A stretch of 61,842 nucleotides of DNA, filler included, from 6 parts of 6 records of this genome joined end to end with filler, not necessarily neighbours in it, one strand, 5' to 3'; shown: positions 8,897-41,786, counted from the first letter of the whole stretch. Numbers and translations: made by a program. The notes: generated from the sequence alone by a model not told the origin.

Positions 8897-10231
8897 TTAT
8901 TTAGATTTCATAAAAGTTTCCATCGAATCATCCATAGCTTCTGCCCATGATGTGTGATGAATAGGTGCAACTGTCCCTGTTACTGCTGATGAAAAAGAAT
9001 TATTTCTATAAGTCATAATATCTTCTTCTTTATGATGTTCCCACACCTTGAAATTTTTTCTAATTAATTCAAAATCAATTGCTGGATAATCAGATAAGGA
9101 ATGTAAATCTTTTGTGTACTCTGTTTGAAAATCTATCATTTGAATTGGATCCCTTAACGCCTCTTCTTCTGATACCCATTTATTGATATCAATATTGATA
9201 TCTTCATCTTTAGGCATTTTCATTTTATCCATAATAACATCTCTTGCGAACCATGCTTGACAATCAAACATATTAAAAGTGTGAAACTGATCTTGCATAC
9301 CTAAATACATCAATTTATGATTATCTTGCCATACAACACCTTTATATAACTTAGGTGGATATAATCTATTAACCGTTTTAAGCCTCAAGGACTCATCAAG
9401 AAAAGGAAAATGATGCAAATAGCCACTGCATAAAATTATAGCATCAGCATTTTGTTCATGACCATCTTTGAAGATTGCTTTATTTCCTTCTAACCTATCT
9501 AAGTGATGAACTTCTTTCATACCATCTGGCCATTTAAATCCCATGGGGTTGTGACGATATCCAATGGTGACAGATTTTGCACCATACTTATAACATTGAA
9601 GTGCTATATCCTCAGCAGAGTAGCTACTACCCAAAACTACAACATCTTTATTTCTAAACTCTTCTGCATCTCTAAAATCATGACCATGTAAAATTCTGCC
9701 AGGGAAAGATTTCATTCCTTCATATTCAGGTGTGTATGGTACAGAAAAATGACCCGACGCAACAATAAGATAATCATAATTATTTGATGTAATAGTGTTA
9801 TTTTTTTTATTTAAGGCAGAAACTTCAAATTGATTTCCATTATATTTTACCTCTTTAACTGTAGTATTAAATTGTATATATTTTTTTATGTTAGCTTTTT
9901 TTGCTCTTCCTAAAATATAATCATATAAAACTTCTCTTGGTGGAAATGAAGGTATAGGTTGTTTAAAATGTTCATCAAAAGAATAGTCTGCAAACTCTAA
10001 ACATTCTTTTGGTCCATTAGACCACAAGTAACGATACATACTATTTGGAATAGTGTCACCATATTGATCAGAGCCTGTTCTCCAACTATAATTCCATAGC
10101 CCTCCCCAATCTTCTTGTTTCTCATAGCAAACTATTTCAGGAATTTTTTGACCCTTTTCCTCGGCTTGTTGAAATGCTCTTAACAATGATAATCCACAGG
10201 GACCTGAGCCTATAATTGCAACTTTTGTCAT
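8897..10231 (-). CDS. tmm: Trimethylamine monooxygenase (bacterial FMO)
   Basis: GSGPCG, WGGLWNY, SMYRYLWSNGPKECLEF, FMO fingerprint FPGRILHGHDF, GSSYSAED. Confidence 0.95.
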   Translation of the reverse strand: MTKVAIIGSGPCGLSLLRAFQQAEEKGQKIPEIVCYEKQEDWGGLWNYSWRTGSDQYGDTIPNSMYRYLWSNGPKECLEFADYSFDEHFKQPIPSFPPREVLYDYILGRAKKANIKKYIQFNTTVKEVKYNGNQFEVSALNKKNNTITSNNYDYLIVASGHFSVPYTPEYEGMKSFPGRILHGHDFRDAEEFRNKDVVVLGSSYSAEDIALQCYKYGAKSVTIGYRHNPMGFKWPDGMKEVHHLDRLEGNKAIFKDGHEQNADAIILCSGYLHHFPFLDESLRLKTVNRLYPPKLYKGVVWQDNHKLMYLGMQDQFHTFNMFDCQAWFARDVIMDKMKMPKDEDINIDINKWVSEEEALRDPIQMIDFQTEYTKDLHSLSDYPAIDFELIRKNFKVWEHHKEEDIMTYRNNSFSSAVTGTVAPIHHTSWAEAMDDSMETFMKSK

Positions 10232-12033: not shown

Positions 12034-12133
12034 NNNNNNNNNNNNNNNNNNNNNNNNNNNNNNNNNNNNNNNNNNNNTTAATTAATTAANNNNNNNNNNN
12101 NNNNNNNNNNNNNNNNNNNNNNNNNNNNNNNNN
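12034..12133. other. Artificial contig spacer
   Basis: N-run + TTAATTAATTAA (stops in all six frames) + N-run; composition changes across it. Confidence 0.98.
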
Positions 12134-12203
12134 AAGCGGGTAGTGACGTGGGCGCCCGCGCTCTACAGTAATAAACTCGGTAGCACTTCGGCTCCACGTA
12201 TTT

Positions 12204-12915
12204 TCAGGGGCGGTTCCACTGGAAGCACTCCATCAAGTGACGGTATCTGTGGATTTTCAGGCTCTACACCGCTCTCAACGCACCCGAAATGTCACTTCCG
12301 GGCGGGTCCTGACAACCAACGCATCGGGCATCCAAGAAAAACCACCCCTGACTCGGGTTGAATTCTTTGTGACACCCGTATTCCGTGTTCGTATAGTGGA
12401 CCCACTAGACGCGGCCACTGCGGAAAAGTGGCTAGGAAGACCCCACCTTGCATTCGCAAACGGGATAGGCAGAGTCCGGTAGTGTTGGAATCTGCCGAAG
12501 GCGTCAGTCAGGACCAGTTTTGACGCAGCGGTCAGTGATGACCGGGTCCATCTTCAAACCGTCGCGGTGTTGCAAGTCCGGGTACCGCACCTTCCAAGCT
12601 CTCCCGCTGGTTACGGGGATCTGTTCCATAAGCGCTGTTAATGGCAGGGCACTCGTGCCCTGGCTATTCGACAGTTTCTTCAACCCGGCAAACGCCCTGG
12701 CGGTCAGTGCGTTCTGCTTTTTTCGAAAAAGGAGGTAAATCCACTCCAGCCTCAGGCTGGATAACCGTTGGTTGGCACGGGCCAGTTTTCATCTGGAAAC
12801 ACACGGTGCTGTCTATGGCCAGACACATTCAGGTCAACCGGGATTGGTGTCCCGTGATCGTACCGCACAGCGGACCTGCGCAGCTTCTGTTGCCAGGTGA
12901 TCAGAAACACTCACC
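12204..12915 (+). ncRNA. Candidate large structured RNA (or folded ssDNA element) upstream of a tyrosine-recombinase gene
   Basis: About 20 hairpins and nested long-range stems seen by eye, e.g. 12204-12215/12340-12351, AAGTGAC/GTCACTT, CGGTCA-GTGA-TGACCG, CAGGGCA-CTCG-TGCCCTG, TCCAGCC-TCA-GGCTGGA; only mutually overlapping non-protein-like short ORFs. Confidence 0.55.
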
Positions 12916-12930
12916 GAAGGAAACCACACT

Positions 12931-13179
12931 ATGCGAGACCTGAACTACCAACTGAAAATGCTGTGCAAGCACAGCCATGAAGGCAGCTTCGAAACCCGGG
13001 TGGGCCGGGAGCGACAACTCAGCGCCATCGCCAATCAGTTACACGACCTGGGCTTCCGGCAGATGAAGGCCACGTCACTCAAACAGAAGCATGTCCAGGC
13101 CCTGGTGGACCACTGGCTGGACCAGAATCTTTCTCCCGGGACTATCAAGAACCGGATGAGCTGTCTGCGCTGGTGGGCC
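12931..13179 (+). pseudogene. N-terminal SAM-like domain of a phage-integrase-type tyrosine recombinase (Phage_int_SAM_2/Integrase_1-type), catalytic domain missing
   Basis: MRDLNYQLKMLCKHSHEGSFETRVGRERQLSAIANQLHDLGFRQMKATSLKQKHVQALVDHWLDQNLSPGTIKNRMSCLRWWA resembles this family's N-terminus; AAGGA RBS at 12917; resemblance stops after RWWA. Confidence 0.8.
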
Positions 13180-13404
13180 GCCTTTGAGCATATCGAGGCG
13201 CGCAACCGCGCCGACAACGTGAGCCCATTTGATGCGCTCCTTAATCAGGGGGTTGAACCCGTGGCGCTCACCGATGCCGAAAAACAGGCCTGGCTGGCCA
13301 TGCAGCAGCCCGGTGAGGCGATGATGCAGAGCGAGGGCGGCTTATCCACGGCGGCGCTAGAGCGGATCAAGGCACTGGTCAGGGATTTCCGCCAGCAACA
13401 ATGA
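13180..13404 (+). pseudogene. dctP: C-terminal remnant of a TRAP substrate-binding protein (DctP), fused in frame to the integrase fragment
   Basis: AFEHIEARNRADNVSPFDALLNQGVEPVALTDAEKQAW resembles DctP C-termini; stop overlaps the dctQ start (ATGA), the normal dctPQM arrangement. Confidence 0.7.
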
Positions 13405-13889
13405 CTCTCCTGGCGCGGATCAATCGGCTTATTAGCTGGCTGGAAGACAGCCTGCTGATTGGATTGGTCGTGGGCCTGCTGCTGGTGGCGGTGGCTCAAA
13501 TTGTGTTGCGTAACGTTGCGGGCGAGGGGCTGTTTTGGGCCGAGCCCGCCATGCGTATTGCCGTTTTATGGATCGCCATGATTGGCGGCATGGTGGCCTG
13601 CCGCGAGGGCGGGCATATCAAAATTAATCTGTTTGATCTGTATGCGCAGGGCAGGGCGAGACGAGCACTGGCCGCTTTGGCGCATTTGGGCGCCTGTGGT
13701 ACCTGCGCGGCGCTGGCCTATGCAAGCTGGCTGTTTGTGGGTTACGAACGCATGGACGGCATGACTACGTTTTTGAACCTCCCCGCTTGGTGGTTTGAGA
13801 GTATTTTGCCGGTGGGCTTTGCCGTGATGACCCTGCGCTTTTTGCGCGATGCGGTGGCCATGCGCCCCCACGCCGACGAGGCGCCATAA
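13401..13889 (+). CDS. dctQ: TRAP transporter small permease
   Basis: Four TM segments, QIVLRN, WAEPAMR, GHIKINL motif, precedes dctM. Confidence 0.9.
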   Translation: MTLLARINRLISWLEDSLLIGLVVGLLLVAVAQIVLRNVAGEGLFWAEPAMRIAVLWIAMIGGMVACREGGHIKINLFDLYAQGRARRALAALAHLGACGTCAALAYASWLFVGYERMDGMTTFLNLPAWWFESILPVGFAVMTLRFLRDAVAMRPHADEAP

Positions 13890-13890
13890 G

Positions 13891-15173
13891 GTGCTCCTCA
13901 CCCTCGCCATTACGGCAGCACTCATTTTTCTTGCGCTCAGCGGCATGCCCATCTTTGCGGTGATAGCCGCCACCGCTTTGATTGGTTTTTACCTCTCGGA
14001 TATCGAGATCACGGTAGTGGCGATCGAGCTCTATCGCATTGTGGATACCCCCATGCTGGTGGCCTTGCCGCTCTTCACCCTGGCCGGTTATCTGCTGGCC
14101 GAGAGCAATGCATCACATCGCCTGGTGCGCACTGCACAGGCCGCCATTGGCTGGCTGCCCGGTGGGCTCGGCATTATTGCCCTCGTAACCTGCGCGTTTT
14201 TTACCGCATTTACCGGCGCATCGGGGGTGACCATCGTGGCGGTGGGTGCGCTTTTGTACCCGGCCCTGGTCAAGGTGGGGTTCTCCGACAAGTTCAGCCT
14301 CGGCCTGGTCACCAGCTCAGGGAGTCTGGGCCTGTTGTTAGCGCCATCTTTGCCGCTCATCTTGTATGGCATCGTGGCGCAGCAAACGGGCTTGGGCGAG
14401 CCGTTTTCGATTCAGGATTTGTTCATTGCCGGCTTGCTGCCTGCCGGCCTTATGGTGCTGCTGCTCTCACTGTGGGCCGTGTGGCAGCAGCGCGATCAGT
14501 GGCACCAACGGCAGCGTTTTACGGCGGCGGAACTCGGCGCTGCCCTGTGGGAGGCGCGCTGGGAGCTACCCCTGCCCTTTGTCGTCTTTGGCGGCATTTA
14601 CGCCGGGTGGTTGGCGGTGTCTGAAACCGCCGCGGTGGTGGCCCTGTACGTACTGATCGTTGAGGTGCTGCTCTATAAGGACATCACAGTGCGCGCGCTG
14701 CCCGATGTGTTTCGTAAGGGCATGATCATGGCCGGGAGCATTATTTTGATCTTGGGCGTGGCGCTGGCACTCACCAATATCATTGTTGATGCCGAGATCC
14801 CTGCGCGGCTGTTTGAGTTTGTGCAGCGGCACGTCGACAGCAAGTACACCTTTTTGATCCTGCTCAATATCTTCCTGCTGCTGTTAGGCGCGGTGCTCGA
14901 TATTTTCTCAGCGCTGGTGATTATGGTGCCGCTCATTTTGCCGCTGGCGGTGGGGTACGGCATCCATCCCGTGCATCTGGGCATTATCTTTTTGGCCAAC
15001 ATGCAGATCGGCTACATGACGCCACCTGTGGGCATGAACCTCTTTATTGCCAGCTACCGCTTTAAAAAGCCCATCACCGAGCTCTACAGCGCATCGCTCC
15101 CGTTATGATGATTCTGCTGATTGCCTTACTGCTCATTACCTATTGGCCCTGGTTGTCGTTGGGGTTCCTGTAG
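13891..15173 (+). CDS. dctM: TRAP transporter large permease, 1-nt frameshift near the 3' end (about 15103)
   Basis: GTG start at 13891; ALPLFTLAG, FTGASG, GSLGLLLAPS, IHPVHLGIIF, IGYMTPPVGMNLF; the final TM helix MMILLIALLLITYWPWLSLGFL* continues in another frame to TAG at 15171-15173. Confidence 0.85.
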
Positions 15174-15585
15174 AGCGAGTTGATGTCGCATATATATGTC
15201 AAATCTAGGCTAACTCAGTTTCCAACTGGCTTTTGGTTCCGTGTACCCCCAACGTTGAGAGCCATTGTTTAAAAAACACCAGATCTTTCCTGCGCTCGAT
15301 GTCTGTTTACTCTGGTTTCGCTCCAGCAATGGTTTTTTATTGATTGTCGCCTCATCTTTGCGCCCTAGCATTTTGAGGGCTTCCCAAGTTGCCCCGAAAG
15401 GGCCAGAAGTCGACAGTAAACCCGCCGCTCGACTTCAAAACCGCATGACCGATGTTCCTTGAATCATTGACTTAGCCTCTTGACTTCGAACGCTTGTTGT
15501 AAATATTGTTCGGCGAGCTTGTCCAAAAACAGTCAGCAGGCGGGCATCGCCGGCTGATGCAAATAAACAACAGGAGCCCCCACCA

Positions 15586-18126
15586 ATGCCTTCAAAACTT
15601 ACGAATCAGTTGAAAGCCCTCAGGAGCCCTTTGGCCTCGGCTACGGGCGCGGTTGTTCTGGCTGCCACCCAACTACCTGTGGCGCACGCACAAGTCACGC
15701 TGGAAGAGGTTGTTGTTACGGCGCGCCAACGTGCGGAGAGCATTTTGGATGTACCTGCATCGGTTACCGCATACTCTGAGTCAGAAATAACAGCCGCAAA
15801 TATTGACCGACCGTCAGATTTCATTATGAGGACGCCGGGCCTGTCTCAGGTGCAGACGGTGGAAGTTGGAGATATGCAGGTTAACGTCCGGGGTATCAAT
15901 TCCGGCCGCGACACTGAAAGTAGCGTAGCGCTTGTCGTGGACGGAGTGCTCCTTACCAACCCCAACGCACTTAATCAGGAGATGGACAACATTTCACAGA
16001 TCGAGGTGCTCAAGGGGCCTCAGGGCGCCATTTACGGTAGAAACGCGCTCGCGGGAGCCATCATCATCAGTACACAAAAGCCTCCGGAAGAATTTGAGGC
16101 CAACATCGAAGCCACCGCCGGGAATTTTGGCTTGGTGAAAGGCGCGGTTGGTATTGGTGGGCCGCTCTCAGACAACGCAGAGGGATTGTTGAGAATCTAT
16201 CATCGTGAGGACGACGGATCCTTTGATAACAGCTTTAAGGGATGTGATGATTGCGTGAATTTCCTCGAGGAAACTGGCGTCACAGGCCGGATTGTCTACA
16301 GGCCGACCGATAATATAGAGCTGGATTTCAAGGCGCGGTGGTCTGAAGTTAAAGCTGGTGGTGTTTCATTTAATGCCTCACTCGCACTAGCCGACGCCGC
16401 TGCGGCGGGCTTCGGCGATTTGTTCTACGAAGATGCAAATGATCATGAGTTCTACTACATCAATCTGAATGATCCCGATAACCAGCAGGAGACACTCAAT
16501 CTCTCCCTGCGTGGTGTTATTGATCTTGATTCAGGCGGTTCCGTGACCTTCTCCGCGTCATATAACGATGCTGAAAATTACTTTATGTCCGCGGGTACCA
16601 GTAACGCCTTCGGCATTTACAATGCAAACGAAGTTTGTCAGGAACAATATTACGCGGCGATCGATACGATTCCCGTACCGGCTCCATTTTTTTACACTCC
16701 TGACATCAGCGGCAGTTTCCTGCCCCCATATCCCCCAATAACTTGCGGTGGCTACCAGTATCAGCAGAGAGACCAGGAGGATATGGCCCTGGAGATCAGG
16801 TACGAGTCAAGCCAGGACCAAGACCTGAGATGGATGATGGGAGGCTACGTCGCCGACATTGATCGACGCTTGGTTGTTGCGTACGGCGGAGACCTCGGCC
16901 TCGGGCAGGACACTTTTCAGCTTGGCTTTGTGCCCGCAAGCGGACCTAATCCAACAGACCTTTTATACGATGACGATCTTCTGAGTACGGTTTACGCAGT
17001 ATTTGGCAGTGTTGACTTTGATATTACTGAGAAGCTGGAGCTAGGACTCGCTCTGCGCTACGACATAGAAGAGCGAGAAGTAAATAACAATGTTCCCAAA
17101 ATCGGCCCGCAAACACCGGGATTCGGAGCCTTTGGATTTCCGGTTTGTCCAAATGGGCCTGACGGCTGCTCTTACTACATCAATCCGTTTTATAACGCGA
17201 ATCAAGACGTAGCCTCTATCCCTTCCCGTGAGGAAGATTTTAGCCAATTACAACCCAAGGTGACGTTAAAGTGGCAAGCAAGTGACGCAGTGATGGCTTT
17301 TGCCTCCTACGGCGTTGGTTTCAGGAGTGGGGGATTCAACTCGTCTGGAACCTCGGCAACGCTCCAACAATTTTTTGGATCGCTGGCGCTAGCGGACGGC
17401 ACTAAGAATTTGAATGACCTTAGCGATGACTTTGATAAAGAGACATCAGAGGCTTTTGAGGTTGGTTTCAAGTCACGGTGGTTGGATGGCCGGCTACAAC
17501 TGAACGGTGCCCTCTACTACACTGAAATGGAGAATGCACAAGACTTCAGCTTCTTCGCAGGACCTTTTGGCTCCCTTCGAGTGGTCACGAATATTGATGA
17601 GGCAGAAATATTCGGGTTCGAGATTGATGGCAAATGGCTCATTAATGAGAATATCAGTGTTCATGGTGGTTACGGATCTACCGACACAGAGATCATTGCT
17701 TACAGCACGCGACCATACACTGCTGGAAACGACATGCCATATATTCCGGAGTACACGGGAAATATCGGTGCGGATCTGAACTTTCCCCTGAGTACTGGCT
17801 GGAATATCAGCGCTCGATGGGACTCGATGTTTGTGGGAGACACATGGTTCTCTCCGGTGCAGGATGACTACGTACCTAACTTTTTTACTGCCTTCGGTTT
17901 TGGGGGCGGTGAATTCACAAAGCAGAGGCGTGACAGTTTTGTTCGCCATGACGCAACGGTCAGTTTGAGCAAGGACAATTGGTCATTCCAGTTATGGGGA
18001 CGCAACATCACTGATGAGGAATATCTGGAGGAGGTGATTCCCGCGCCAGAATTCGGCGGATCCTTTATTCATGATACCTATGGCAGGACATACGGCATTA
18101 CCGTCCGATGGAACTATGGTGGTTGA
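15586..18126 (+). CDS. TonB-dependent outer-membrane receptor
   Basis: Signal peptide, TonB box LEEVVVTARQR, plug motifs VRGI and IEVLKGPQGAIYGRNALAGAI, GFRSGGFN, C-terminal GRTYGITVRWNY. Confidence 0.95.
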   Translation: MPSKLTNQLKALRSPLASATGAVVLAATQLPVAHAQVTLEEVVVTARQRAESILDVPASVTAYSESEITAANIDRPSDFIMRTPGLSQVQTVEVGDMQVNVRGINSGRDTESSVALVVDGVLLTNPNALNQEMDNISQIEVLKGPQGAIYGRNALAGAIIISTQKPPEEFEANIEATAGNFGLVKGAVGIGGPLSDNAEGLLRIYHREDDGSFDNSFKGCDDCVNFLEETGVTGRIVYRPTDNIELDFKARWSEVKAGGVSFNASLALADAAAAGFGDLFYEDANDHEFYYINLNDPDNQQETLNLSLRGVIDLDSGGSVTFSASYNDAENYFMSAGTSNAFGIYNANEVCQEQYYAAIDTIPVPAPFFYTPDISGSFLPPYPPITCGGYQYQQRDQEDMALEIRYESSQDQDLRWMMGGYVADIDRRLVVAYGGDLGLGQDTFQLGFVPASGPNPTDLLYDDDLLSTVYAVFGSVDFDITEKLELGLALRYDIEEREVNNNVPKIGPQTPGFGAFGFPVCPNGPDGCSYYINPFYNANQDVASIPSREEDFSQLQPKVTLKWQASDAVMAFASYGVGFRSGGFNSSGTSATLQQFFGSLALADGTKNLNDLSDDFDKETSEAFEVGFKSRWLDGRLQLNGALYYTEMENAQDFSFFAGPFGSLRVVTNIDEAEIFGFEIDGKWLINENISVHGGYGSTDTEIIAYSTRPYTAGNDMPYIPEYTGNIGADLNFPLSTGWNISARWDSMFVGDTWFSPVQDDYVPNFFTAFGFGGGEFTKQRRDSFVRHDATVSLSKDNWSFQLWGRNITDEEYLEEVIPAPEFGGSFIHDTYGRTYGITVRWNYGG

Positions 18127-18135
18127 CGCCAAAGC

Positions 18136-18166
18136 TTCCCGCCGGATTGCTTTAATCCGGTGGGAG
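18136..18166 (+). terminator. Strong hairpin after the TBDR gene (terminator or mRNA stabiliser)
   Basis: TTCCCGCCGGATT-gcttt-AATCCGGTGGGAG, about 13 bp with G-U pairs; weak U-tract. Confidence 0.55.
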
Positions 18167-18218
18167 CCTTATTGACAGCGTCTGATCTGTTTGCATTTGT
18201 TGGTTTGGAGATTGCGCC

Positions 18219-18905
18219 GTGAACCCTGCAGCCACTACAAAACCCTACACTAGAGCTGGCAAGCAGCCTCGGGCCGATGGTGAGAAAACGAAGGAGAGCA
18301 TTCTTGACGCGGCCGAATACCTGTTTTCGTATGGCGGCTTAGATGGCGTTTCGATTCGGCAGATAACGAAAAGAGCAAGCACTGACCTAGGATCCATAAA
18401 TTATTACTTTGGCTCAAAAATTGGACTTTTCAGGGCTGTGCTTATACGACGTGTAGCAGGCATGACAGAGCAGAGGCTGGAGTCGCTGTCGAAATTGCGG
18501 GCCGGATCAAATAAAAAAAATGCGATTCGAGAAATATTGGCTGCGTTTATTGCTCCTTTGTTCGGCGATAGCCCGGATCAGTGTGATCAATTGGCTAACT
18601 ATAGAAGGCTTGTAGCTTTGGTGGCCAATTCTAAAGCTTGGCAAGAAGAGGTGTTCAGGCAACACTATGATCAGGCGGCCGACCACTACATTGGTGCATT
18701 GTCCAAGCAGATGCCGGAGGTCAGTGTTGCGCAAGTGTGTTGGTACTTTAATTTTTTTCTTGGTGCGCTGACTAACTCCATTGCAGAGACAGGAAGGGTT
18801 GACAGGTTGTCCGGCGGCTTGTGCGAATCTGCCGACTTGGAAGATATGCAAAATAACTTGTTGAACGCAACTGTGCCTGCATTTATGGCATTACTGAGAA
18901 CATGA
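18219..18905 (+). CDS. TetR/AcrR-family regulator (PsrA-like)
   Basis: TKESILDAAEYLF...VSIRQIT..A..DLGSINYYFGSK HTH signature. Confidence 0.92.
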   Translation: MNPAATTKPYTRAGKQPRADGEKTKESILDAAEYLFSYGGLDGVSIRQITKRASTDLGSINYYFGSKIGLFRAVLIRRVAGMTEQRLESLSKLRAGSNKKNAIREILAAFIAPLFGDSPDQCDQLANYRRLVALVANSKAWQEEVFRQHYDQAADHYIGALSKQMPEVSVAQVCWYFNFFLGALTNSIAETGRVDRLSGGLCESADLEDMQNNLLNATVPAFMALLRT

Positions 18906-18944
18906 ACGGGCACTTTGGCTTTGGTGAGAAATGGAGGGGCAGTC

Positions 18945-19399
18945 GTGGCCAATCGAGACAATAATTTAGACATCGTAATCATTGGCGCGGGGTTTTCGGG
19001 CCTGTATATGCTCTATAAGTTGCGAAAAAGTGGCTACAGAGCACGAATATATGAGAAAGGCCATGGTGTCGGCGGTACCTGGTACTGGAATCGTTACCCT
19101 GGTGCAGGCAGTGATATCGAGAGCCTTGAATACTCTTACGGTTTTGATGATGCACTGCAGCAAGAGTGGGAATGGAAAGAGCGTTATGCCTCTCAGCCGG
19201 AACTCGAGAAATATCTGGAGCACGTTGCGGAACGATTTGACCTAAATAAGGATATTGTTTTTGGTCAGACCGTCGCCGGCTTGCAGTGGGACAAAGTCGC
19301 AGCTCAGTGGAGATGCGAGTTCGCTGATGGTGACGTAGTGGAGGCTCCTTATGTGGTCATGGCGACAGGGTTGCTTTCTGCTCCTAAGGCACCAGACTT
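18945..19399 (+). CDS. Baeyer-Villiger monooxygenase (cyclohexanone-monooxygenase family), truncated by contig end
   Basis: GTG start after GGAGG; IIGAGFSG, GGTWYWNRYPGA, DIES..YSY, ATGLLS. Confidence 0.9.
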
Positions 19400-19499
19400 N
19401 NNNNNNNNNNNNNNNNNNNNNNNNNNNNNNNNNNNNNNNNNNNTTAATTAATTAANNNNNNNNNNNNNNNNNNNNNNNNNNNNNNNNNNNNNNNNNNNN
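19400..19499. other. Artificial contig spacer
   Basis: N-run + TTAATTAATTAA + N-run. Confidence 0.98.
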
Positions 19500-21336
19500 A
19501 TTTTTTAATTAAGTCCCTCATTCCTGTTGATTCTAATTGAAAAACTGCCATAGTTTTACCTGAAGAAAGCAGATCAAATACCTTTTGATCATTCATAGAT
19601 ATATTGTCTAAATCTATTTTATTCTGATCTTTTAATGATGCGTTTATAGATTTTACTGCCCTATCAATTACAGTAAGTGTTCTTAAACCAAGAAAATCAA
19701 ATTTAACTAAACCTATTTTTTCTACATCATCTTTATCATATTGGGTCATGACTGAAGAAGATTGTCTATCATTATAAATAGGACAAAAATCTGAAAGGCT
19801 TCCTGGAGCTATAACAACCCCACCGGCATGTTTTCCAACATTTCTAGTAATACCTTCAAGCTTGTATGCTAAATCAACAACCTCTCTAACTTCAGGATCA
19901 TTTTTAGCAGCCTGAGCAAATACTGGTTGCTCATCTTTTGCTCTATCCAGCGTCATTCCTGGCGCAAATGGAATCATCTTCGAAATTCTATCTCCAAGAG
20001 CGTAAGGTTTTCCCATTGCTCTTGCAACATCTCTGACAACTGCTCTTGCAGCCATTGTGCCAAAAGTTGCTATCTGAGAAACAGCATCAGCCCCATACTT
20101 TTTACTAACATAATCTATTACGCTGTCTCTTTTTTCCATACAGAAATCAATATCAAAATCTGGCATTGATATTCTCTCCGGATTTAAAAAGCGCTCAAAC
20201 AAAAGACCGTGATCAATAGGATCAAGAGTTGTTATTCCAAGTGAATATGCAACTAGTGAACCTGCTCCTGAACCCCTTCCAGGCCCAACAGGAACATCGT
20301 TATCTTTTGACCATTGAATAAAATCATAAACAATCAAAAAGTAACTTGAAAAGCCCATTTTCTTAATCTGATTTAATTCGTATTCAAGTCTTTGCGCATA
20401 TATCTTCTGTTTTGTTTCTTCAAAATCAGTGATTAGCTTTGAAAGTCTTTTTTTAGCAAGATCTTCCAAAAAGGAATCAAAGCTATGTTCTTCTGGGACT
20501 GGGTATTCTGGAAGAAAGTAACCCTTAGTGTGGAGAGAAACATTACATTTTTTTGCTACTTCATTTGTATTAACAATAAGCTCTTCAAAACCCTTAAATA
20601 ATTTTTGCATCTCATCAGAGGTTTTAAAATACTGCTCATCTGAGAATGGCTTTTCTCTGTTTGGATCATTGAGAGTCTTGCCCGTATTGATACAAACTTT
20701 TGTTTCATGTATTTCATAATCATCCTTTGAAGAAAACAAAACATCATTTGTAGCTATCAAAGGAATACCTTTTTTATTTGATAAAGGAAGAATATTTGAA
20801 AAAAATTCAATTTCATCAGATCTATTTGTTTTTTGTACTTCAATAAAAAAGTCATTCTTGAAAACTGTTAAAAAATCATCAATTTTTTTTTCGATCTCAT
20901 TAATTTTATTTTGTTTTGACAGTTCAAAAATATGACTATCTTTTCCTCCAGAAACAACGATTATATTGTCCTTAAAGTTCTTTAAATCTTTGAAATTAAT
21001 TATTGGAGTTTGATAAGTATAATTATTATGAGCAGAAGAAATTGCTTGCATTAAATTTCTGTGCCCATCATTGTTTTTTGCCAAGCATAATAGTTCATGA
21101 GAAGAATCATCTCCATCAAATATAACCCTTATTGATGTACCTGATATTGGTTTAATTCCAGACGCTTCACACTTATTAAAAAACTTTACCATTGCAAACA
21201 TATTTGATTTATCTGTTAAAGCTACAGATGGAATAGTATGTTTTTTAGCACTTTCTATAATTTGATCGATGGTTAGAAGGCCTTGAGATATACTATATTC
21301 TGAAGAAACTCTTAGATGTGAAAAAATATTTTTCAT
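19500..21336 (-). CDS. dnaE: DNA polymerase III alpha subunit, 3'-truncated
   Basis: PHP domain, GPGRGSGAGSL, FERFLNPERISMPDFDIDF, GKHAGG, KFDFLGLRTL, VFQLES. Confidence 0.97.
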
Positions 21337-35427: not shown

Positions 35428-35505
35428 TGGGGTGATCGACGGGATTCGAACCCGCGACATCCTGGACCACAACCAGGTGCTCTAACCAACTGAGCTACGA
35501 CCACC
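35428..35505 (-). tRNA. tRNA-His(GTG), G-1 and CCA encoded
   Basis: GGTGGTCGTAGCTCAG...CCTGG-TTGTGGT-CCAGG...GTTCGAATC...CACCCCA. Confidence 0.96.
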
Positions 35506-35510
35506 ACGCG

Positions 35511-35584
35511 CGCTCTCGATAGGACTCGAACCTATAACCTACAGATTAGAAGTCTGTTGCTCTATCCATTTGAGCTACGAGAGC
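35511..35584 (-). tRNA. tRNA-Arg(TCT)
   Basis: GCTCTCG acceptor, ACAGA-CTTCTAA-TCTGT anticodon arm, GTTCGAGTC T-loop. Confidence 0.96.
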
Positions 35585-35588
35585 CTCG

Positions 35589-35659
35589 AGCGGGTGAAGG
35601 GGATCGAACCCTCATAGCCAGCTTGGAAGGCTGGAGCTTTGCCATTAAGCTACACCCGC
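35589..35659 (-). tRNA. tRNA-Gly(TCC)
   Basis: GCGGGTG acceptor, CCAGC-CTTCCAA-GCTGG, GTTCGATC T-loop. Confidence 0.96.
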
Positions 35660-35673
35660 AATAATGCGATTCG

Positions 35674-35748
35674 TCGGGCTGGTGAGATTCGAACTCACGA
35701 CCTCCTGCTCCCAAAGCAGGCGCTCTAGCCAAGCTGAGCCACAGCCCG
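35674..35748 (-). tRNA. tRNA-Pro(TGG)
   Basis: CGGGCTG acceptor, CCTGC-TTTGGGA-GCAGG, GTTCGAATC. Confidence 0.96.
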
Positions 35749-35843
35749 TACGTCTAATTATTGTTCCATGATACTGGTTTTATGGAAACAATTAATTAAA
35801 AAATAATAGTTAAGTAATCTTACTTCGGTTAATCTGTATAAAA

Positions 35844-35916
35844 GGGTCGCTAGCTCAACTGGCAGAGCATCGGACTCTTAATCCGCAGGTTCGGGGTTCA
35901 AGTCCCCGGCGACCCA
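35844..35916 (+). tRNA. tRNA-Lys(CTT)
   Basis: GGGTCGC acceptor, CGGA-CTCTTAA-TCCG, GTTCAAGTC. Confidence 0.95.
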
Positions 35917-35928
35917 CGCGACATTTTA

Positions 35929-36011
35929 GCGGATGTGGCGGAACTGGTAGACGCGCTGGATTTAGGATCCAGTGAGCTTTGCTCGTGGAGGTTCGAGTCC
36001 TCTCATCCGCA
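35929..36011 (+). tRNA. tRNA-Leu(TAG)
   Basis: GCGGATG acceptor, CTGGA-TTTAGGA-TCCAG, long variable arm GAGC-TTT-GCTC, GTTCGAGTC. Confidence 0.96.
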
Positions 36012-36028: not shown

Positions 36029-36514
36029 TTAAACTTCAACCACAAGTTCAGTGGAACTAGCTGTGGCATACACTTTTCCATCTTTATCAGCCAGTGACCC
36101 TTTAACAAAAATTACTTTTCTACCTACTTTTTCGATAATCGCAGCAGCAGTTACCTCGCCAGTTTTTATAGTCATTGGTCTTAAATAATTTACTCTGATA
36201 TCCGTTGTCATTGTAAGAAATCCTTTATCAACCTGACAGTTCGCTGAAATACTATTGCAAGAATCTAACAAGGTAGCAGCTAGTCCTCCGTGTACTGTGC
36301 CTAGAGGATTGTAATGAAATTCTTGAGGTGTAATAGTAAAGGTTACATGCCCTTTGTCGTCAATATCTATCTCAGAAAATCCCATTAATGCACCTATCGG
36401 AACATTTTCCATAGGTAAATCTCTAAAAAATTCGATTCTTTGGTAACGATCGAGACTTATTAATTTTTGAACAGCATCTTGGGGTAAATTCCAGCTAAAT
36501 GTTCTTTCACTCAT
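36029..36514 (-). CDS. PaaI-family (hotdog fold) thioesterase
   Basis: HYNPLGTVHGGLAATLLDS, VNYLRP, GRKVIF. Confidence 0.9.
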   Translation of the reverse strand: MSERTFSWNLPQDAVQKLISLDRYQRIEFFRDLPMENVPIGALMGFSEIDIDDKGHVTFTITPQEFHYNPLGTVHGGLAATLLDSCNSISANCQVDKGFLTMTTDIRVNYLRPMTIKTGEVTAAAIIEKVGRKVIFVKGSLADKDGKVYATASSTELVVEV

Positions 36515-38453
36515 CGTCGGAATCTATCGCCCTCGATTGTAGCTCAGAGACTATGTCAGCATTAGCCAATGTAGTAACATCGCCAAGTTTTCTCTCCTCT
36601 GAAATGTCTTTGAGAAGCCTACGCATAATTTTACCACTTCGAGTTTTTGGTAAGTCTGCGGTTATCACGATACTTTTTGGTTTAGCTATCGGTCCAATTT
36701 TATCACTTACATGTTGCCTTAATTCTGAGATTAAATTCTCATCACCTTGATCAGTTCCTATTAAAGAAACAAATGCTGCAATCGCTTCGCCTGATATCTC
36801 ATCAGATCTTCCAATTACAGCAGCCTCAGCTACTGCTTCATGTGAGACTAAAGCACTCTCAACCTCAGCTGTTGAAATTCTATGTCCTGAAATATTCATA
36901 ACGTCGTCTACTCTTCCTAAAAGCCATACATAGCCTTCATCATCATATTTCGCTCCATCGCCAGCAAAATATAGACCTTCATGTTGTGACCAATAAGTAT
37001 CAATATATCTCTGATCATCCCCATACACTGTTCTTAACATTGATGGCCATGGTGTTTTAATAGCCAAATAACCACCTTCTCCTTTACCAACTTCGTTTCC
37101 TTTTTCGTCTATGATGGCAGACTCTATTCCTGGAAGAGGTCCACATGCAGACCCAGGCTTAGTATCGGTTATTCCTGGTAATGGTGAAATCATAATGGAA
37201 CCCGTTTCCGTTTGCCACCAGGTATCAACAATTGCGCATTGCTCGTTACCTATATTTTGGTGATACCACATCCATGCCTCAGGATTAATTGGCTCACCAA
37301 CTGTACCTAAAAGTCTCAGTGATGATAGGTCATGAGCTTGCGGATGTTCTACTCCCCATTTCATAAATGCCCTAATAGCGGTTGGTGCTGTATAGAAAAT
37401 ATTTACCTTATACTTTTCAATTATATTCCATAGTCTTTTCTCATCTGGAGCATTAGGAGCTCCCTCGTACATCACACTTGTAGTTTTGTTTGCAAGAGGT
37501 CCATAAACAATATAACTATGGCCAGTAACCCAACCACAATCAGCAGCACACCAATAAATATCGTCATCTTTGATGTCAAAAACTTCATGGTGAGTCGTTG
37601 TAACTCCAGTTAGATATCCTGCCTGGGTGTGAACTATTCCTTTCGGTTTCGCTGTAGTACCGGATGTGTAAAGAATGTAAAGCATATCTTCAGCATTCAT
37701 TACTTCAGGTTCACATTCTGAAGATTCATTTTTTGTAATGTCTTCGTACCAGTGATCTCTACCTTCAACCATTGAGATTTCTTGATTGGTTCTTTTAACT
37801 ACAATTACATTTTCTATGTATTCAGTCAATGAAAGAGATCCGTCAACATTTTCTTTTAGAGGTACGATATCTCCCCTTCTCCAGGCACCATCAGCAGTAA
37901 TGACTAATTTAGCTTGTGCGTCGTTAATTCTATCAGCTAAAGCTTCTGACGAAAAGCCTCCGAAAACAACTGAATGAACCGCTCCAATTCTTGCACAAGC
38001 TAGCATTGATACAACTATTTCAGGAGTCATGCCGAGGTAGATTGCTACCCTATCACCCTTTCCAACATTTAATTTTTTTAGTGCGTTTGAAAGCCTACAA
38101 ACTCTTTCATACAGATCTTGATAAGTAATTTCCTGAGTATCTCCAGGCTCCCCTTCCCAGTAAAATGCTACTCTGTCAGCATCAGTTTCAAGATGTCTGT
38201 CCAAACAGTTATATGAAAGGTTCAGCTCTCCATCTTTGAACCATTTGTAAAAAGGTGCATTTGAATCATCTAAAACTTCTGTCGGTTCTTTGTACCACGT
38301 AATACGTTCAAGGGCTTGTTTTTTCCAAAACTCTATACGGTCTTCATTTGCTTCTGTAAACCAATCACTTGATGCATTTGCATTGTTAACAAGATTTTCA
38401 GATGGGCTAAATTTTCTATTTTCTTCTAATAGGTTTTCTATTTTTTCATTCAT
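36507..38453 (-). CDS. acs: Acetyl-CoA synthetase
   Basis: YTSGTTAKPKG, VGEPINPEAW, DTWWQTETG, GRVDDV, LPKTRSGKIMRR. Confidence 0.97.
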   Translation of the reverse strand: MNEKIENLLEENRKFSPSENLVNNANASSDWFTEANEDRIEFWKKQALERITWYKEPTEVLDDSNAPFYKWFKDGELNLSYNCLDRHLETDADRVAFYWEGEPGDTQEITYQDLYERVCRLSNALKKLNVGKGDRVAIYLGMTPEIVVSMLACARIGAVHSVVFGGFSSEALADRINDAQAKLVITADGAWRRGDIVPLKENVDGSLSLTEYIENVIVVKRTNQEISMVEGRDHWYEDITKNESSECEPEVMNAEDMLYILYTSGTTAKPKGIVHTQAGYLTGVTTTHHEVFDIKDDDIYWCAADCGWVTGHSYIVYGPLANKTTSVMYEGAPNAPDEKRLWNIIEKYKVNIFYTAPTAIRAFMKWGVEHPQAHDLSSLRLLGTVGEPINPEAWMWYHQNIGNEQCAIVDTWWQTETGSIMISPLPGITDTKPGSACGPLPGIESAIIDEKGNEVGKGEGGYLAIKTPWPSMLRTVYGDDQRYIDTYWSQHEGLYFAGDGAKYDDEGYVWLLGRVDDVMNISGHRISTAEVESALVSHEAVAEAAVIGRSDEISGEAIAAFVSLIGTDQGDENLISELRQHVSDKIGPIAKPKSIVITADLPKTRSGKIMRRLLKDISEERKLGDVTTLANADIVSELQSRAIDSDDE

Positions 38454-38504
38454 AGGAATACTCCTTTTTTATAAGTATAAATAAAAAAATTAGAAAATAT
38501 CTAA

Positions 38505-40061
38505 TTAGCTTGTCATAAAATAATAATTAAATCCATCACAAAGTGCATTCCATGAGGCATTGATAATATTTTCATGGACACCTATAGTACTCCAGTTTTT
38601 AGTTGTATCTGTAAATTCAATTAAGACCCTTGTTTTTGCTTCGGTACCATCAGAAGAATCAATAATTCTTACTTTGTAATCAACTAATTTGATGGTTGTA
38701 ACATTTGGGTAATCAGCCTCTAATGCTGCTACAAGGGCCTTACTTAAAGCGTCTACAGGGCCGACCCCCTCACCAGTTGTGACGTATCTATTCTCATTGA
38801 CAATTAATTTTGTTACAGCTTCTGAGATAACATTTTCCGAATTGCGCCTTTCTGAAAATACACGAAAACTCTCAAAACTAAAAAACTCTGGAACTACATT
38901 TTTTACTTTATTCATAAGTAAAAATAAAGATGCATCTGCAGCCTCAAATTGATATCCAGCATGTTCTAAATTCTGTACATGATTAATTAATTCTTTCGCA
39001 TCATCATTTGAAAACTCTAAACCAAACTCATTTGCTTTAGTAATTACACTTGCCCTACCAGCTAGTTCTGAGACCGTAGTTCGTGTATAGTTCCCTACAG
39101 CAGAAGAGTCAATGTGTTCGTATAGTGAGCTGTCTTTAGCCATACCGGAAGCATGTAATCCAGCTTTGTGAGTAAAAGCAGCTGAACCAACATATGGCTG
39201 TCTAGAATCGATAGTGACATTGACTAGTTCAGCAATGTGATTTGCTATAGGTGTTAGCTTTTTTAAAGATTCTAAATTTATTGTTTCATGACCCATTTTT
39301 AAAGATAAGTTTGGTACAAGAGTACAAAGATCCGCATTTCCAGTTCTCTCTCCATAACCGTTCATGGTCCCTTGAACATGGTTCACTCCCAAATTGACTG
39401 CTGCCATGGAATTTGTAACTGCACATCCATTATCATTTTGAAAATGTACACCAAACTTTTGGCCTTCATACCTTGGCAATATTTCGTTTAATATTGCAGT
39501 GACTTCTGACGGTAACGTTCCTCCATTTGTATCACAAAATATGAAGCAATCTACACCAGCAGCCATAACTGCATCCATTATTTCAAGACTTGTTTTGGAG
39601 TCCTCTTTATATCCATCAAAAAAATGCTCAGCATCAAAAAAGACTTTTTTGCCTTTGGAACTAAGATGTTCAATTGTGTCAACAGCCATTTCTATAGCAC
39701 TTTTAACATCAGTTTGAATTGCTTTTGTAATATGTAAATTTGATGATTTTCCTACAATACAGACATACTCTGTTCCAGAGTCAATGAGCGCCTGGACTTG
39801 TGGATCCTCATCAACTTTTGAATTTAGTTTTCTTGTAGATCCAAAACTTACTAGTTTTGCATTTTTAAGTTTAAGTTCAGTTTTAGCCCTATCAAAAAAT
39901 TCTTCTTCTTTGGGTGAAGCACCCGGCCAACCACCCTCTATAAAGGCTACACCTAGTTCATCAAGTAATTCTGCAATAGCAAGCTTGTCCTTCACAGAAG
40001 GTGATATCCCTTCCTGCTGAAAGCCATCTCTCAAAGTTGTATCAAATATATCTATTTTCAT
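38505..40061 (-). CDS. cimA: Citramalate synthase (DRE-TIM, CimA family)
   Basis: DTTLRDGFQQEG, IEGGWPG, FDAEHFFDG, GYGERTGNA, HKAGLH, SELAGR, DYKVRI, WSTIGVHENII.ASW; start at ATG 40061 (the longer ORF-track start lies inside the attenuator). Confidence 0.92.
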   Translation of the reverse strand: MKIDIFDTTLRDGFQQEGISPSVKDKLAIAELLDELGVAFIEGGWPGASPKEEEFFDRAKTELKLKNAKLVSFGSTRKLNSKVDEDPQVQALIDSGTEYVCIVGKSSNLHITKAIQTDVKSAIEMAVDTIEHLSSKGKKVFFDAEHFFDGYKEDSKTSLEIMDAVMAAGVDCFIFCDTNGGTLPSEVTAILNEILPRYEGQKFGVHFQNDNGCAVTNSMAAVNLGVNHVQGTMNGYGERTGNADLCTLVPNLSLKMGHETINLESLKKLTPIANHIAELVNVTIDSRQPYVGSAAFTHKAGLHASGMAKDSSLYEHIDSSAVGNYTRTTVSELAGRASVITKANEFGLEFSNDDAKELINHVQNLEHAGYQFEAADASLFLLMNKVKNVVPEFFSFESFRVFSERRNSENVISEAVTKLIVNENRYVTTGEGVGPVDALSKALVAALEADYPNVTTIKLVDYKVRIIDSSDGTEAKTRVLIEFTDTTKNWSTIGVHENIINASWNALCDGFNYYFMTS

Positions 40062-40065
40062 ATCT

Positions 40066-40112
40066 AAAAAAAAACCCCTGCCATGCAAGGGTAACAACGA
40101 TACGTTCGTTGT
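40066..40112 (-). terminator. Attenuator: upstream hairpin + intrinsic terminator before cimA
   Basis: Minus strand ACAACGA-acgta-TCGTTGT, then ACCCTTGC-atg-GCAGGGGT running into a 9-nt T-run that ends 4 nt before the cimA ATG. Confidence 0.8.
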
Positions 40113-40114
40113 CC

Positions 40115-40141
40115 TTAATTAATAATTATGATATTCATCAT
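40115..40141 (-). CDS. Isoleucine-rich leader peptide MMNIIIIN (cimA attenuator)
   Basis: ATG ATG AAT ATC ATA ATT ATT AAT TAA: four consecutive Ile codons just upstream of a terminator and an Ile-biosynthesis gene. Confidence 0.8.
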   Translation of the reverse strand: MMNIIIIN

Positions 40142-40150
40142 GTATCAATA

Positions 40151-40834
40151 TTACTTATTTCTATTCCGTTGTCTAGCAATTATATAGCCAAGTAGTAAGA
40201 GGGAGAATAATAAACCAACAACATAAACTTGTGTTAACTCTTGTGTGTTTGATGACATCAAGAAGGTTTGCTCAAGTAAACCTGAGTGTTGAAATATTAT
40301 TTTATTATCTACAATATTTTCAATTTTTGGTTCTGTTACTCTTCCCGGAAGCTGAATGCTTAAGCTACCAGAATAAATATTTTCTATTCCTTCTATCTCT
40401 TCATCTGCACCATTGAGTATTTTTGCAAAAGAACCTGAGATACTTCTTTTATTTCCATCAGAAGATATTGAAATATTAGATAAAGGGAGTAGCAACAGTT
40501 CAGTATTCTCATTTTCACGAAGAATTTCTAATTGATTCTCGAACTCTTCAATATTTTGAAAATTATTTCTGATTAAGATACCCAATTTATCATTATCCTC
40601 GTAAATAGTTGAGCCAAAACCATCTGGCATAGCTGTAAGTATGGCATTTAAACCACCAATAGAAGTTTGGCCTGTCTCTACTGCGTATAGCTGTGCTTCT
40701 TGGTCAAGAAGAATAGCTATTCTGTAATCTCCAGAATTATCATCATTAAGTTCTATTTCCATTGTCCAAGTTGCTTCACATGCTGAGAAGAATAAAAATA
40801 ATAATACTATGAGAAGATTCTTAGATTTTTTCAT
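40151..40834 (-). CDS. Putative lipoprotein with C-terminal membrane anchor (LppM/DUF3153-like)
   Basis: Lipobox FSAC after a basic/hydrophobic signal, LNDDNSG, IQLPGRV, C-terminal TM + basic tail. Confidence 0.6.
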   Translation of the reverse strand: MKKSKNLLIVLLFLFFSACEATWTMEIELNDDNSGDYRIAILLDQEAQLYAVETGQTSIGGLNAILTAMPDGFGSTIYEDNDKLGILIRNNFQNIEEFENQLEILRENENTELLLLPLSNISISSDGNKRSISGSFAKILNGADEEIEGIENIYSGSLSIQLPGRVTEPKIENIVDNKIIFQHSGLLEQTFLMSSNTQELTQVYVVGLLFSLLLLGYIIARQRNRNK

Positions 40835-41393
40835 TTAGAATTCCAATCATTTTATTTGTAGCAATCTTGCGGTGACTAATACTATTTTTCTCCTCTGAAG
40901 ATAATTCAGCAAGGGTTTTACCCTTATTTTCAAATATAGAATCATATCCAAATCCATTTGTACCTCTAGGTTTTTTAGTAATGATACCTTCAAGAATTCC
41001 ATCTGTAGAAATTTCAGTTACACCATCGTAGAAATATAAGACTGTTTGAAAGTATGCACTTCTATCCTCTTCTTCGATGAGGTTTGCCAACAGCTTGTCA
41101 ATATTTTGAAGATCGGTTGCATTCTCTCCTGCATACCTTTTTGAATGAAGGCCAGGCATCCCATCGAGTGAATTTACAAATAAACCAGAATCATCAGAAA
41201 TTACAGGAACCTGATAATGATCAAAAATTTCATGTGCTTTTTTTTGAGCATTTTCTAAAATTGTATTTTTATCCTCCACAACATCTAATAAATCTTCTTT
41301 GTAGATAGCTTGATGGAAGTTACCAGTATCTTTTAATATTTTAGAAATTTCTCTATGCTTGTTGATATTTTTAGTTGCAAGAAGTATATTCAT
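40821..41393 (-). CDS. rdgB: dITP/XTP pyrophosphatase (Ham1 family)
   Basis: ATKNINK, ENAQKKA, SDDSGL, PGLHSKRY, GFGYD, KNSISHR. Confidence 0.95.
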   Translation of the reverse strand: MNILLATKNINKHREISKILKDTGNFHQAIYKEDLLDVVEDKNTILENAQKKAHEIFDHYQVPVISDDSGLFVNSLDGMPGLHSKRYAGENATDLQNIDKLLANLIEEEDRSAYFQTVLYFYDGVTEISTDGILEGIITKKPRGTNGFGYDSIFENKGKTLAELSSEEKNSISHRKIATNKMIGILNEKI

Positions 41394-41786
41394 TAGTTTT
41401 TTTGAAGAGTTATAATTTTTTCTATTTCTGGTTTTGTTATTTCAAATAACTTATCAAGATCTTCTTTGGAGAATGGTTTCTTCTCAGCAGTTCCTTGAAT
41501 TTCTAGAATCTCAAAATTATCATTTAATACTATATTTAAATCTACTTGCGCATTTGAATCATTTTTATAATCAAGATCAACTATGTACTCACCTTCAACA
41601 ATTCCCACGGATAAAGCTGCAACATGGTTCATCAAAGGATTTTGATTCATTTTTCCATTTTCAACTAATTTATTAAATGACTCGTTTAATGCTATCCATG
41701 AACCGTTAATTGAAGCTGTTCTCGTTCCGCCATCAGCCTCTAAGACATCACAATCCACTGTTACTGAATATCCATTTAATAATTTC
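41393..41786 (-). CDS. rph: Ribonuclease PH, 5'-truncated
   Basis: DCDVLEADGGTRTASING, DLDY..DS.AQVDLN, EIQGTAE. Confidence 0.95.

Follow-up and report, generated by a model that had tools for sequence, protein, structure and literature searches.

Leader-peptide attenuation and leaderless leader peptides are already well known in Actinomycetota, and the described systems form the background for the element analysed here, an 89-nucleotide (nt) leader that lies upstream of cimA, the gene for citramalate synthase (CimA), on the minus strand of a 61,842-nt stretch of DNA (referred to as the window, at its full length and with filler included). As judged from its sequence, this leader is likely to be a ribosome-mediated transcription attenuator that senses charged tRNA-Ile, and is probably leaderless. 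In the enterobacterial ilvGMEDA, ilvBN, thr, and leu leaders, runs of end-product codons lie ahead of an intrinsic terminator, as they do in the cimA leader, but those leaders differ in possessing a ribosome-binding site, four overlapping segments, a strong 2:3 antiterminator, and control codons placed inside segment 1.

Closer counterparts are found among actinobacteria. The Mycobacterium tuberculosis ilvB1NC leader comprises an upstream open reading frame (uORF) with LVVI, an antiterminator, and an intrinsic terminator; according to the accessible portion of the report (Nat Microbiol 2026, PMC13236596), the antiterminator is hidden by a ribosome that has reached the stop codon and can form when the ribosome stalls on the sensor, a logic like that proposed here for cimA, and a short terminated leader transcript was seen. 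The same portion describes a response to several branched-chain amino acids, a location before ilvB, a length of 166 nt, and mutually exclusive structures, whereas the cimA leader is confined to Ile, spans 89 nt, and yielded no exclusive pairing in the searches described below. In the three-hairpin model of the Corynebacterium glutamicum ilvBNC leader, as presented in the accessible part of PMC11857589, the antiterminator and terminator abut at their bases, as the two hairpins of the cimA leader do, and only a boundary trinucleotide is contested; this three-base overlap was tested by mutation, a third (anti-antiterminator) hairpin is included, and the control codons specify multiple amino acids. 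Unlike that system, the cimA leader has an overlap of 0-2 bases, which is thermodynamically negligible in 20 of 21 distinct leaders from its order. The ilvL, leuL1/2, trpL1/2, thrL, alaL, and metL frames of Streptomyces lividans are located at the first base of the transcript, as is predicted for the cimA leader frame, with a -10 element ~6 nt upstream and, in some cases, a hairpin and U-run; among the eight leaderless peptides listed in the accessible text of PMC8079986, none precedes cimA and none contains an Ile-only run. Finally, mycobacterial polycysteine leaderless short ORFs use consecutive end-product codons as a sensor, as proposed for the cimA leader, although, in the available part of that study (bioRxiv 10.1101/834739), they act on translation, through the release of a Shine-Dalgarno sequence and without participation of an intrinsic terminator.

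Neither a paper nor an RNA family devoted to a cimA isoleucine leader came to light in a search that left most subscription journals and supplements outside, and a listing in a supplementary table is possible; the accessible portions of PMC1262725 (Seliverstov 2005) and PMC4633059 (Shell 2015) contain no mention of citramalate or of cimA isoleucine leaders, and cimA does not occur in the text of PMC3223726. Compared with the systems above, the unusual traits of the cimA leader are its extreme compaction, its non-overlapping hairpins, and its conserved sensor-to-hairpin spacing.

Architecture of the cimA leader

The relatives of the window belong to the genus Candidatus Actinomarina (order Actinomarinales, class Acidimicrobiia), and CimA of the nearest genome is 99% identical. 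Read from the minus strand, the leader fills the 89-nt gap between an upstream ORF of 227 amino acids (aa; 40834..40151) and cimA, in agreement with the earlier estimate of a complete attenuator of about 90 nt. The original prediction had named a -10-like box, a short poly-Ile frame, a hairpin, and a terminator in this gap, and each of these elements is exact to the base.

A -35-like hexamer, TAGACA (40170..40175), lies inside the last codons of the upstream ORF, and is followed after 16 nt by a -10-like hexamer, TAATAT (40148..40153), whose TAA is at the same time the stop codon of that ORF; in a promoter consensus scan, the pair matched the consensus at nine of 12 positions. The bases AGACA are invariant in 17 genus sequences and also encode a conserved Arg-Gln, so their conservation is ambiguous. 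Between TAATAT and the leader ATG is a 6-nt spacer, TGATAC. A variant at position 40145 in this spacer is common to the nearest genome, and the spacer varies freely in sequence and is fixed in length.

The leader frame (40115..40141) consists of eight codons and a stop, ATG ATG AAT ATC ATA ATT ATT AAT TAA, encoding MMNIIIIN, and lacks a Shine-Dalgarno sequence. The presumed sensor is formed by four consecutive Ile codons, ATC ATA ATT ATT (40121..40132), so that half of the leader codons (4/8) specify what the pathway finally makes, an enrichment of the kind that defines attenuators. Hairpin 1 (40093..40113; 8 bp, 5-nt loop), with the arms ACAACGA (40112-40106) and TCGTTGT (40100-40094), starts 4 nt past the first base of the leader stop codon. 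It is adjoined without a spacer by an intrinsic terminator between the leader frame and cimA, a stem-loop of 8 bp and a 3-nt loop (40074..40092; ACCCTTGC at 40092-40085, ATG, and GCAGGGGT at 40081-40074; -11.6 kcal/mol) that runs into a U-tract of nine T (40066..40074), then AGAT, and then the cimA ATG at 40061. A 96-nt stretch covering this region folds to -25 kcal/mol, compared with -13.9 +/- 2.7 kcal/mol in 200 shuffles (z -4.15; one shuffle as good), and the terminator before cimA is the sole terminator-like site that a scan of 38300-41500 detected. With Rfam 15 at a permissive threshold, no model came near its gathering score at 39500-40700 (the best E-value, 0.09, belonged to an unrelated lncRNA model), and over the whole window only tRNAs were recognized; the leader thus corresponds to no T-box or other catalogued cis-regulatory RNA in that database.

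The downstream gene, cimA (38505..40061, minus strand), encodes 518 aa, begins with an ATG 4 nt past the U-tract, and has no Shine-Dalgarno sequence in this strain. Its product scores 610.3 bits against TIGR00977 (cut-off 450), whereas the best LeuA model reaches 271.8 bits (cut-off 517) and all LeuA models remain far below their cut-offs, which upholds the earlier assignment as CimA and not LeuA; a separate LeuA-like paralogue is located elsewhere in the nearest genome. Without meeting a stop, the cimA frame extends upstream as far as a TTG within hairpin 1 (40097; 530 vs 518 aa), and automatic gene callers could therefore count the terminator as part of the gene; the ATG at 40061 is favoured as the start by alignments with TIGR00977 and with relatives.

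The window has a G+C content of ~30%, and such an AT-rich genome makes Ile-codon runs common. Short ATG frames with at least four Ile codons in a row occur twice in the window, against 0.07 expected from 100 first-order resamples. The second of these frames, which ends at 9787 on the plus strand, was rejected as a chance occurrence: it lies antisense in a 444-aa flavin monooxygenase-like ORF and is not accompanied by hairpins. Taken by itself, the window shows the leader frame to be only moderately unusual and would not settle the choice between chance and function, and the case for the cimA leader rests on conservation.

Conservation of the leader within and beyond Actinomarinales

CimA was detected above the cut-off in 49 of 65 genomes of the order, the 16 without it being 60-90% complete (rounded figures). 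All 19 full-length loci of the same genus contain an 8-codon frame with 4-5 Ile codons, a hairpin, a terminator, and a T-run. When a strict pattern (frame, hairpin 1, terminator, at least seven T, and ATG) was applied to the 50 order genomes with upstream DNA, the window included, it matched in 49, and the 50th differs by a single terminator base; all 50 contain an Ile run in a frame of 7-9 codons, and the T-run is exactly nine in all 49 strict matches. Outside the Ile run, the leader peptide varies (MKKIIIII in 20 cases, MINFIIII in 12, MMNIIIIN in six, and nine other forms), and a -10-like hexamer is located 6-7 nt before the leader start codon in relatives. In each of the five genomes searched for it, the hairpin-terminator motif has a single occurrence, which lies at cimA, and a control with the reversed pattern gave no match. 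Stem pairing is kept in 98.5% of cells across the 17 genus sequences, compared with 34-56% when the partner is slid; within the genus, hairpin 1 contains one pair with an A-U/U-A/U-G exchange, and the changes in the terminator are one-sided.

Outside the order, an Ile-run frame followed by a hairpin and a terminator was found in five of 15 same-class genomes with CimA, with frames such as MSASIIIIA, ..TIIIID, ..SIAIIIIC, and ..VPFIIIP (each ending at a stop codon); their stems are unrelated to those of the order, and a GC-rich hairpin lies directly 3' of the frame. In nine others, cimA directly follows an ORF ending in ..WLEYV and a stop, identified as a class IV aminotransferase with confirmation in one genome and by eye in the rest, and the remaining genome has neither the Ile-run frame nor this ORF before cimA.

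A scan of public genomes further provided a phylum-wide set of 80 cimA loci across Actinomycetota, in which up to 300 nt upstream were searched. Short upstream frames with III are present at 16 of the 80 loci on the sense strand and at none on the antisense strand, whereas the next triple, LLL, was observed six times in sense and four times in antisense, and no other residue exceeded three on the sense strand; the enrichment is thus specific for Ile. A 17th III frame lies at -302. The carriers include Pseudonocardiaceae, Amycolatopsis, Lentzea, Kutzneria, Actinophytocola, and Kribbella, as well as a metagenome-assembled genome (MAG) of Nocardioidaceae, Ornithinibacter, Nostocoides, a Micrococcales MAG, and several Acidimicrobiia. 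Each of these 17 Ile-frame leaders combines a pair of hairpins with a U-rich tail. RNAalifold, applied to 13 leaders of the Actinomycetes group, returned the two hairpins only, with compensatory double changes in six of 17 pairs and one unpaired column between the hairpins, and an Rfam search of 16 homologous loci yielded one tRNA and no family for the leader. Judged by these comparisons, the element is conserved across many actinobacteria and hence is not a product of chance. The check suggested earlier, for conserved Ile-codon uORFs upstream of cimA in relatives, thus gave a positive outcome, and the earlier claim that a poly-Ile leader frame and a terminator would control cimA gains support: the arrangement recurs in 50/50 order genomes and in other actinobacterial classes.

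The conservation extends to the putative promoter. In 12 of the 13 Actinomycetes-group leaders, a TG-n-CANNNT-like -10 element was located by eye 6-7 nt before the start codon. The mean hexamer-to-start distance given for Streptomyces in the accessible portion of PMC8079986 is 6.3 nt, which the spacing in the Actinomycetes-group leaders fits. Together with the hexamer at the same distance in the window, this pattern is consistent with the originally proposed leaderless start.

A very different account would treat the hairpin pair and terminator as an ordinary structure ending the upstream gene, with the short frame accidental. The element does begin at the stop codon of the upstream ORF, AT-rich DNA readily makes Ile-codon runs, and, among four RNA runs, the X4 and X9 contigs bridge the leader and span the upstream gene, the leader, and cimA, though contigs cannot show single transcripts. 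In the other two runs, the X5 and X8 contigs break within 40066-40102; X4, X5, and X8 come from the same study, and the breaks coincide with the inverted repeat and the homopolymer. This account is nevertheless extremely improbable, given that Ile-run frames followed by the same architecture also stand before cimA in high-GC genomes, where the upstream gene is a different one or missing, that the enrichment is specific for strand and residue (16/80 vs 0/80), that the -10 hexamer and the hairpin spacing are conserved, and that the 4 nt left before the ATG give no room for a downstream promoter of cimA's own.

Ribosome position and the fate of the terminator

If the leader acts as an attenuator, a promoter with its -10 over the upstream stop codon would place the 5' end of the RNA on the A of the leader AUG or on a neighbouring base, and a 70S ribosome would translate the 8-codon frame. 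When Ile-tRNA is plentiful, the ribosome would pass the four Ile codons to the UAA, where it would occupy and unwind the 5' arm of hairpin 1; with hairpin 1 opened, the terminator would form, and RNA polymerase would stop within the U9 tract, which ends 4 nt short of the cimA AUG. Under a shortage of Ile-tRNA, the ribosome would be held on the Ile codons, and hairpin 1, located 7-10 nt past the first base of the last Ile codon, would stay folded. The folded hairpin adjoining the terminator would then lower termination so that cimA is transcribed, and the citramalate route would refill 2-oxobutanoate and isoleucine.

The position of the sensor relative to hairpin 1 follows a simple rule. Spacing, taken as the distance between the initial base of the last Ile codon and the base with which pairing of hairpin 1 begins, was measured in 51 distinct leaders (30 from the order, 13 from the Actinomycetes group, and eight other Acidimicrobiia-like leaders), and amounts to 7-9 nt in 38 of them; of the 21 leaders from outside Actinomarinales, 19 fall within this range, and 14 have exactly 8 nt. 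Relative to the start of hairpin 1, the leader stop codon, in contrast, varies in position between 5 nt upstream and 25 nt downstream, and three groups with unrelated stem sequences share this pattern of a constant distance between Ile codon and hairpin but an unconstrained stop. Counted from the first base in its P site, a ribosome unwinds a downstream helix at a distance of ~11 nt. At this distance, the base of hairpin 1 would be at the mRNA entrance with the last Ile codon in the A site, so that the hairpin would remain intact throughout the Ile run and begin to melt at the next step. In modelling of the window leader with the ribosome edge at or before leader nt 29 (on the Ile codons), the probability of hairpin 1 is 0.89-0.92, whereas an edge at or beyond nt 32 (at the stop codon) abolishes it. 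Ribosome position is thus predicted to alter which structure forms, as is characteristic of attenuators.

How this difference would be conveyed to the terminator is less straightforward. The original prediction had suggested that AAGG (40116-13), which overlaps the leader stop, extends hairpin 1 by pairing with CCTT (40090-87) in the 5' arm of the terminator, giving a classical, mutually exclusive antiterminator. The bases are present, and, without the 3' arm of the terminator, the extended hairpin is the minimum-energy fold of the window sequence; moreover, 13 of 17 distinct genus sequences form three of the four pairs, where a strain has TAG as the stop its G could pair with the first terminator C (by eye), one leader (L017) shows real competition, its boundary C pairing upstream with a probability of 0.34, and three-base boundary competition corresponds to the published C. 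glutamicum ilvBNC model, as given in the accessible part of PMC11857589. The pairing is, however, weak and unconserved. The extension adds only ~1 kcal/mol (-9.7 vs -8.7 kcal/mol for hairpin 1 alone), against 11.6 kcal/mol for the terminator and -20.3 kcal/mol for hairpin and terminator together; the four pairs form in 17, 17, 13, and 5 of the 17 genus sequences, respectively, with no compensatory change; and no equivalent is found in the high-GC homologues. The terminator was ~98% formed in every model, with a probability of 0.985 irrespective of where the ribosome edge was set between leader nt 0 and nt 40; in 20 of 21 distinct order leaders, the bottom G-C pair of the terminator has a probability of at least 0.92; and the extension did not sequester the terminator arm in nine of ten leaders folded as truncated RNA. 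We therefore consider this antiterminator improbable. The accompanying ribosome logic stands, in that a ribosome at the stop would cover the 5' arm of hairpin 1 and one on the Ile codons would not.

Broader searches were also negative. No antiterminator was revealed by a thermodynamic search using ribosome masks, RNAs without the terminator 3' arm in ten leaders, and boundary-pair probabilities; in the high-GC leaders, inspection by eye for pairing of the hairpin-1 arm or loop with the terminator arms and for pseudoknots gave short, inconsistent matches only. A mutually exclusive antiterminator was not found in the consensus fold either, which contains two compatible hairpins, hairpin 1 adjoining the terminator without overlap. 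In the textbook layout of the trp, his, and leu leaders, hairpin 1 would instead be a protector (1:2) that a stalled ribosome melts, freeing its 3' arm to pair with a terminator arm. With a 26-nt occlusion, as described in the accessible portion of PMC13236596, a ribosome positioned at the final Ile codon would indeed encroach on hairpin 1 by a few bases. Such a four-segment scheme is nonetheless quite unlikely, as no usable complementarity between the hairpin 1 3' arm and either terminator arm was detected by inspection or by a partition function with the 5' arm masked (terminator 0.985), and the Ile codons precede the hairpin 5' arm rather than lying within it, the first of them 12-23 nt upstream.

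Returning to attenuation by a ribosome that leaves hairpin 1 folded, ribosomes on the Ile codons and at the stop codon differ only in the folding of hairpin 1, so folded hairpin 1 must oppose termination if Ile shortage is to raise cimA. As a working hypothesis, a rigid helix flush with the 5' base of the terminator may hinder closure of its lowest pairs in the polymerase exit channel; the spacer between the two hairpins is 0-1 nt in all 30 distinct order leaders and 0 nt in 11 of 13 Actinomycetes-group leaders. The closest documented counterpart is the C. glutamicum ilvBNC leader described above. More generally, the antiterminator would share no base with the terminator, and folded hairpin 1, kept intact only as long as a ribosome waits on the Ile codons ahead of it, would block it by geometry (in the polymerase exit channel or through a nearby ribosome) instead of by alternative pairing, a proposal that we regard as tentative and, on balance, rather doubtful. 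If true, geometric blocking would be a distinct physical principle, which the compact two-hairpin attenuators of Actinomycetota may have in common, the organism's own ilvB leader (see below) among them. The non-overlapping hairpins offer a clean system for defining the minimal requirements of antitermination.

Several observations weigh against the attenuator interpretation or its details. Since no alternative pairing excludes the terminator, secondary-structure thermodynamics alone predict termination in both ribosome states, and a spacer of 1-5 nt in the eight other Acidimicrobiia-like leaders weakens a purely steric account, spacers of 3-5 nt also telling against the exit-channel hypothesis. 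Ile-codon runs of four or more number 13 in the window, compared with 4.2 +/- 2.2 in first-order resamples, and promoter-like matches in the region are no commoner than in shuffles (15 vs 13.9). Related genomes are non-independent samples, so that the counts given above overstate independence. Furthermore, the public RNA runs covering the stretch (n=17) consist of contigs only, which cannot show transcript 5' or 3' ends or read-through, and the literature search found no experiment on any cimA leader.

The predicted termination in both ribosome states would also suit a post-transcriptional role, in which the terminator is constitutive and leaky and a ribosome stalled near the 5' end stabilizes the read-through mRNA or alters cimA translation. 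The absence of a Shine-Dalgarno sequence before cimA in this strain, with its AUG 13 nt from the terminator stem, would fit such a role, and a leaderless poly-Cys frame controls translation in mycobacteria, according to the accessible part of bioRxiv 10.1101/834739. Yet it requires neither the conserved spacing to hairpin 1 nor the abutment of hairpin and terminator, and in high-GC genomes cimA starts ~20 to 210 nt past the terminator, so nothing ties the leader to the ribosome-binding site; the possibility appears slim.

Isoleucine physiology and surroundings of the leader

CimA catalyses the committed step of the threonine-independent isoleucine route, here in marine genomes of ~1 Mb. The threonine deaminase (ilvA) models TIGR01127 and TIGR01124 were unmatched in five of five genus genomes (87-90% complete), whereas both matched in 14 of 14 controls; with no threonine deaminase found, the citramalate route is probably the sole source of 2-oxobutanoate, and CimA the sole entry to isoleucine.

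In the nearest genome, ilvB too is preceded by an attenuator of this build (L160:1376-1480; ilvB at L160:1486). Its near-leaderless frame, MKKLYVLITLLVLVLM followed by a stop, is rich in Leu, Val, and Ile, and the G of its TAG stop opens the hairpin, which begins 8 nt after the last Leu codon. The terminator, CCTCCC-A7-GGGAGG with T9, adjoins this hairpin, and the ilvB ATG follows 10 nt later. It thus appears that the shared pathway is regulated through a mixed branched-chain sensor and the Ile-specific entry step through one that reads Ile only, which would show a streamlined cell splitting the control of one branched-chain amino acid from that of the other two with only ~90 nt of RNA. In addition, the cimA element can serve as an annotation aid, as it sets CimA apart from LeuA and marks a promoter and a small frame missed by gene callers, and its recurrence from Actinomarina to Amycolatopsis and Kribbella means that it could become an RNA family testable in culturable strains.

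The upstream 227-aa ORF (40151..40834, minus strand), whose 3' end contains the promoter-like hexamers of the leader, has no family match, and by eye shows hydrophobic N- and C-terminal stretches. Downstream, acs (acetate-CoA ligase; 36507..38453, minus strand) begins 51 nt after cimA; the intervening gap contains no terminator-like site and carries a promoter-like TAGATA-18-TATACT at 38503-38474. The two genes are possibly co-transcribed, and, acetyl-CoA being a co-substrate of CimA, their co-regulation is conceivable.

Two further features of the window lie apart from this locus. At 12100-19500, a block of ~48% G+C in the ~30% G+C genome encodes an N-terminal fragment of a phage integrase, the TRAP transporter components DctQ/DctM, a TetR regulator, a truncated oxidoreductase, and a TonB-dependent receptor of 846 aa (a type of outer-membrane protein that is unexpected in an actinobacterium), and adjoins a truncated DNA polymerase III alpha ORF. 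This block was not found in the four nearest genomes, and is either a strain-specific island or an assembly chimera. At 35431-36011, six tRNA genes form a divergent cluster, with four genes on the minus and two on the plus strand.

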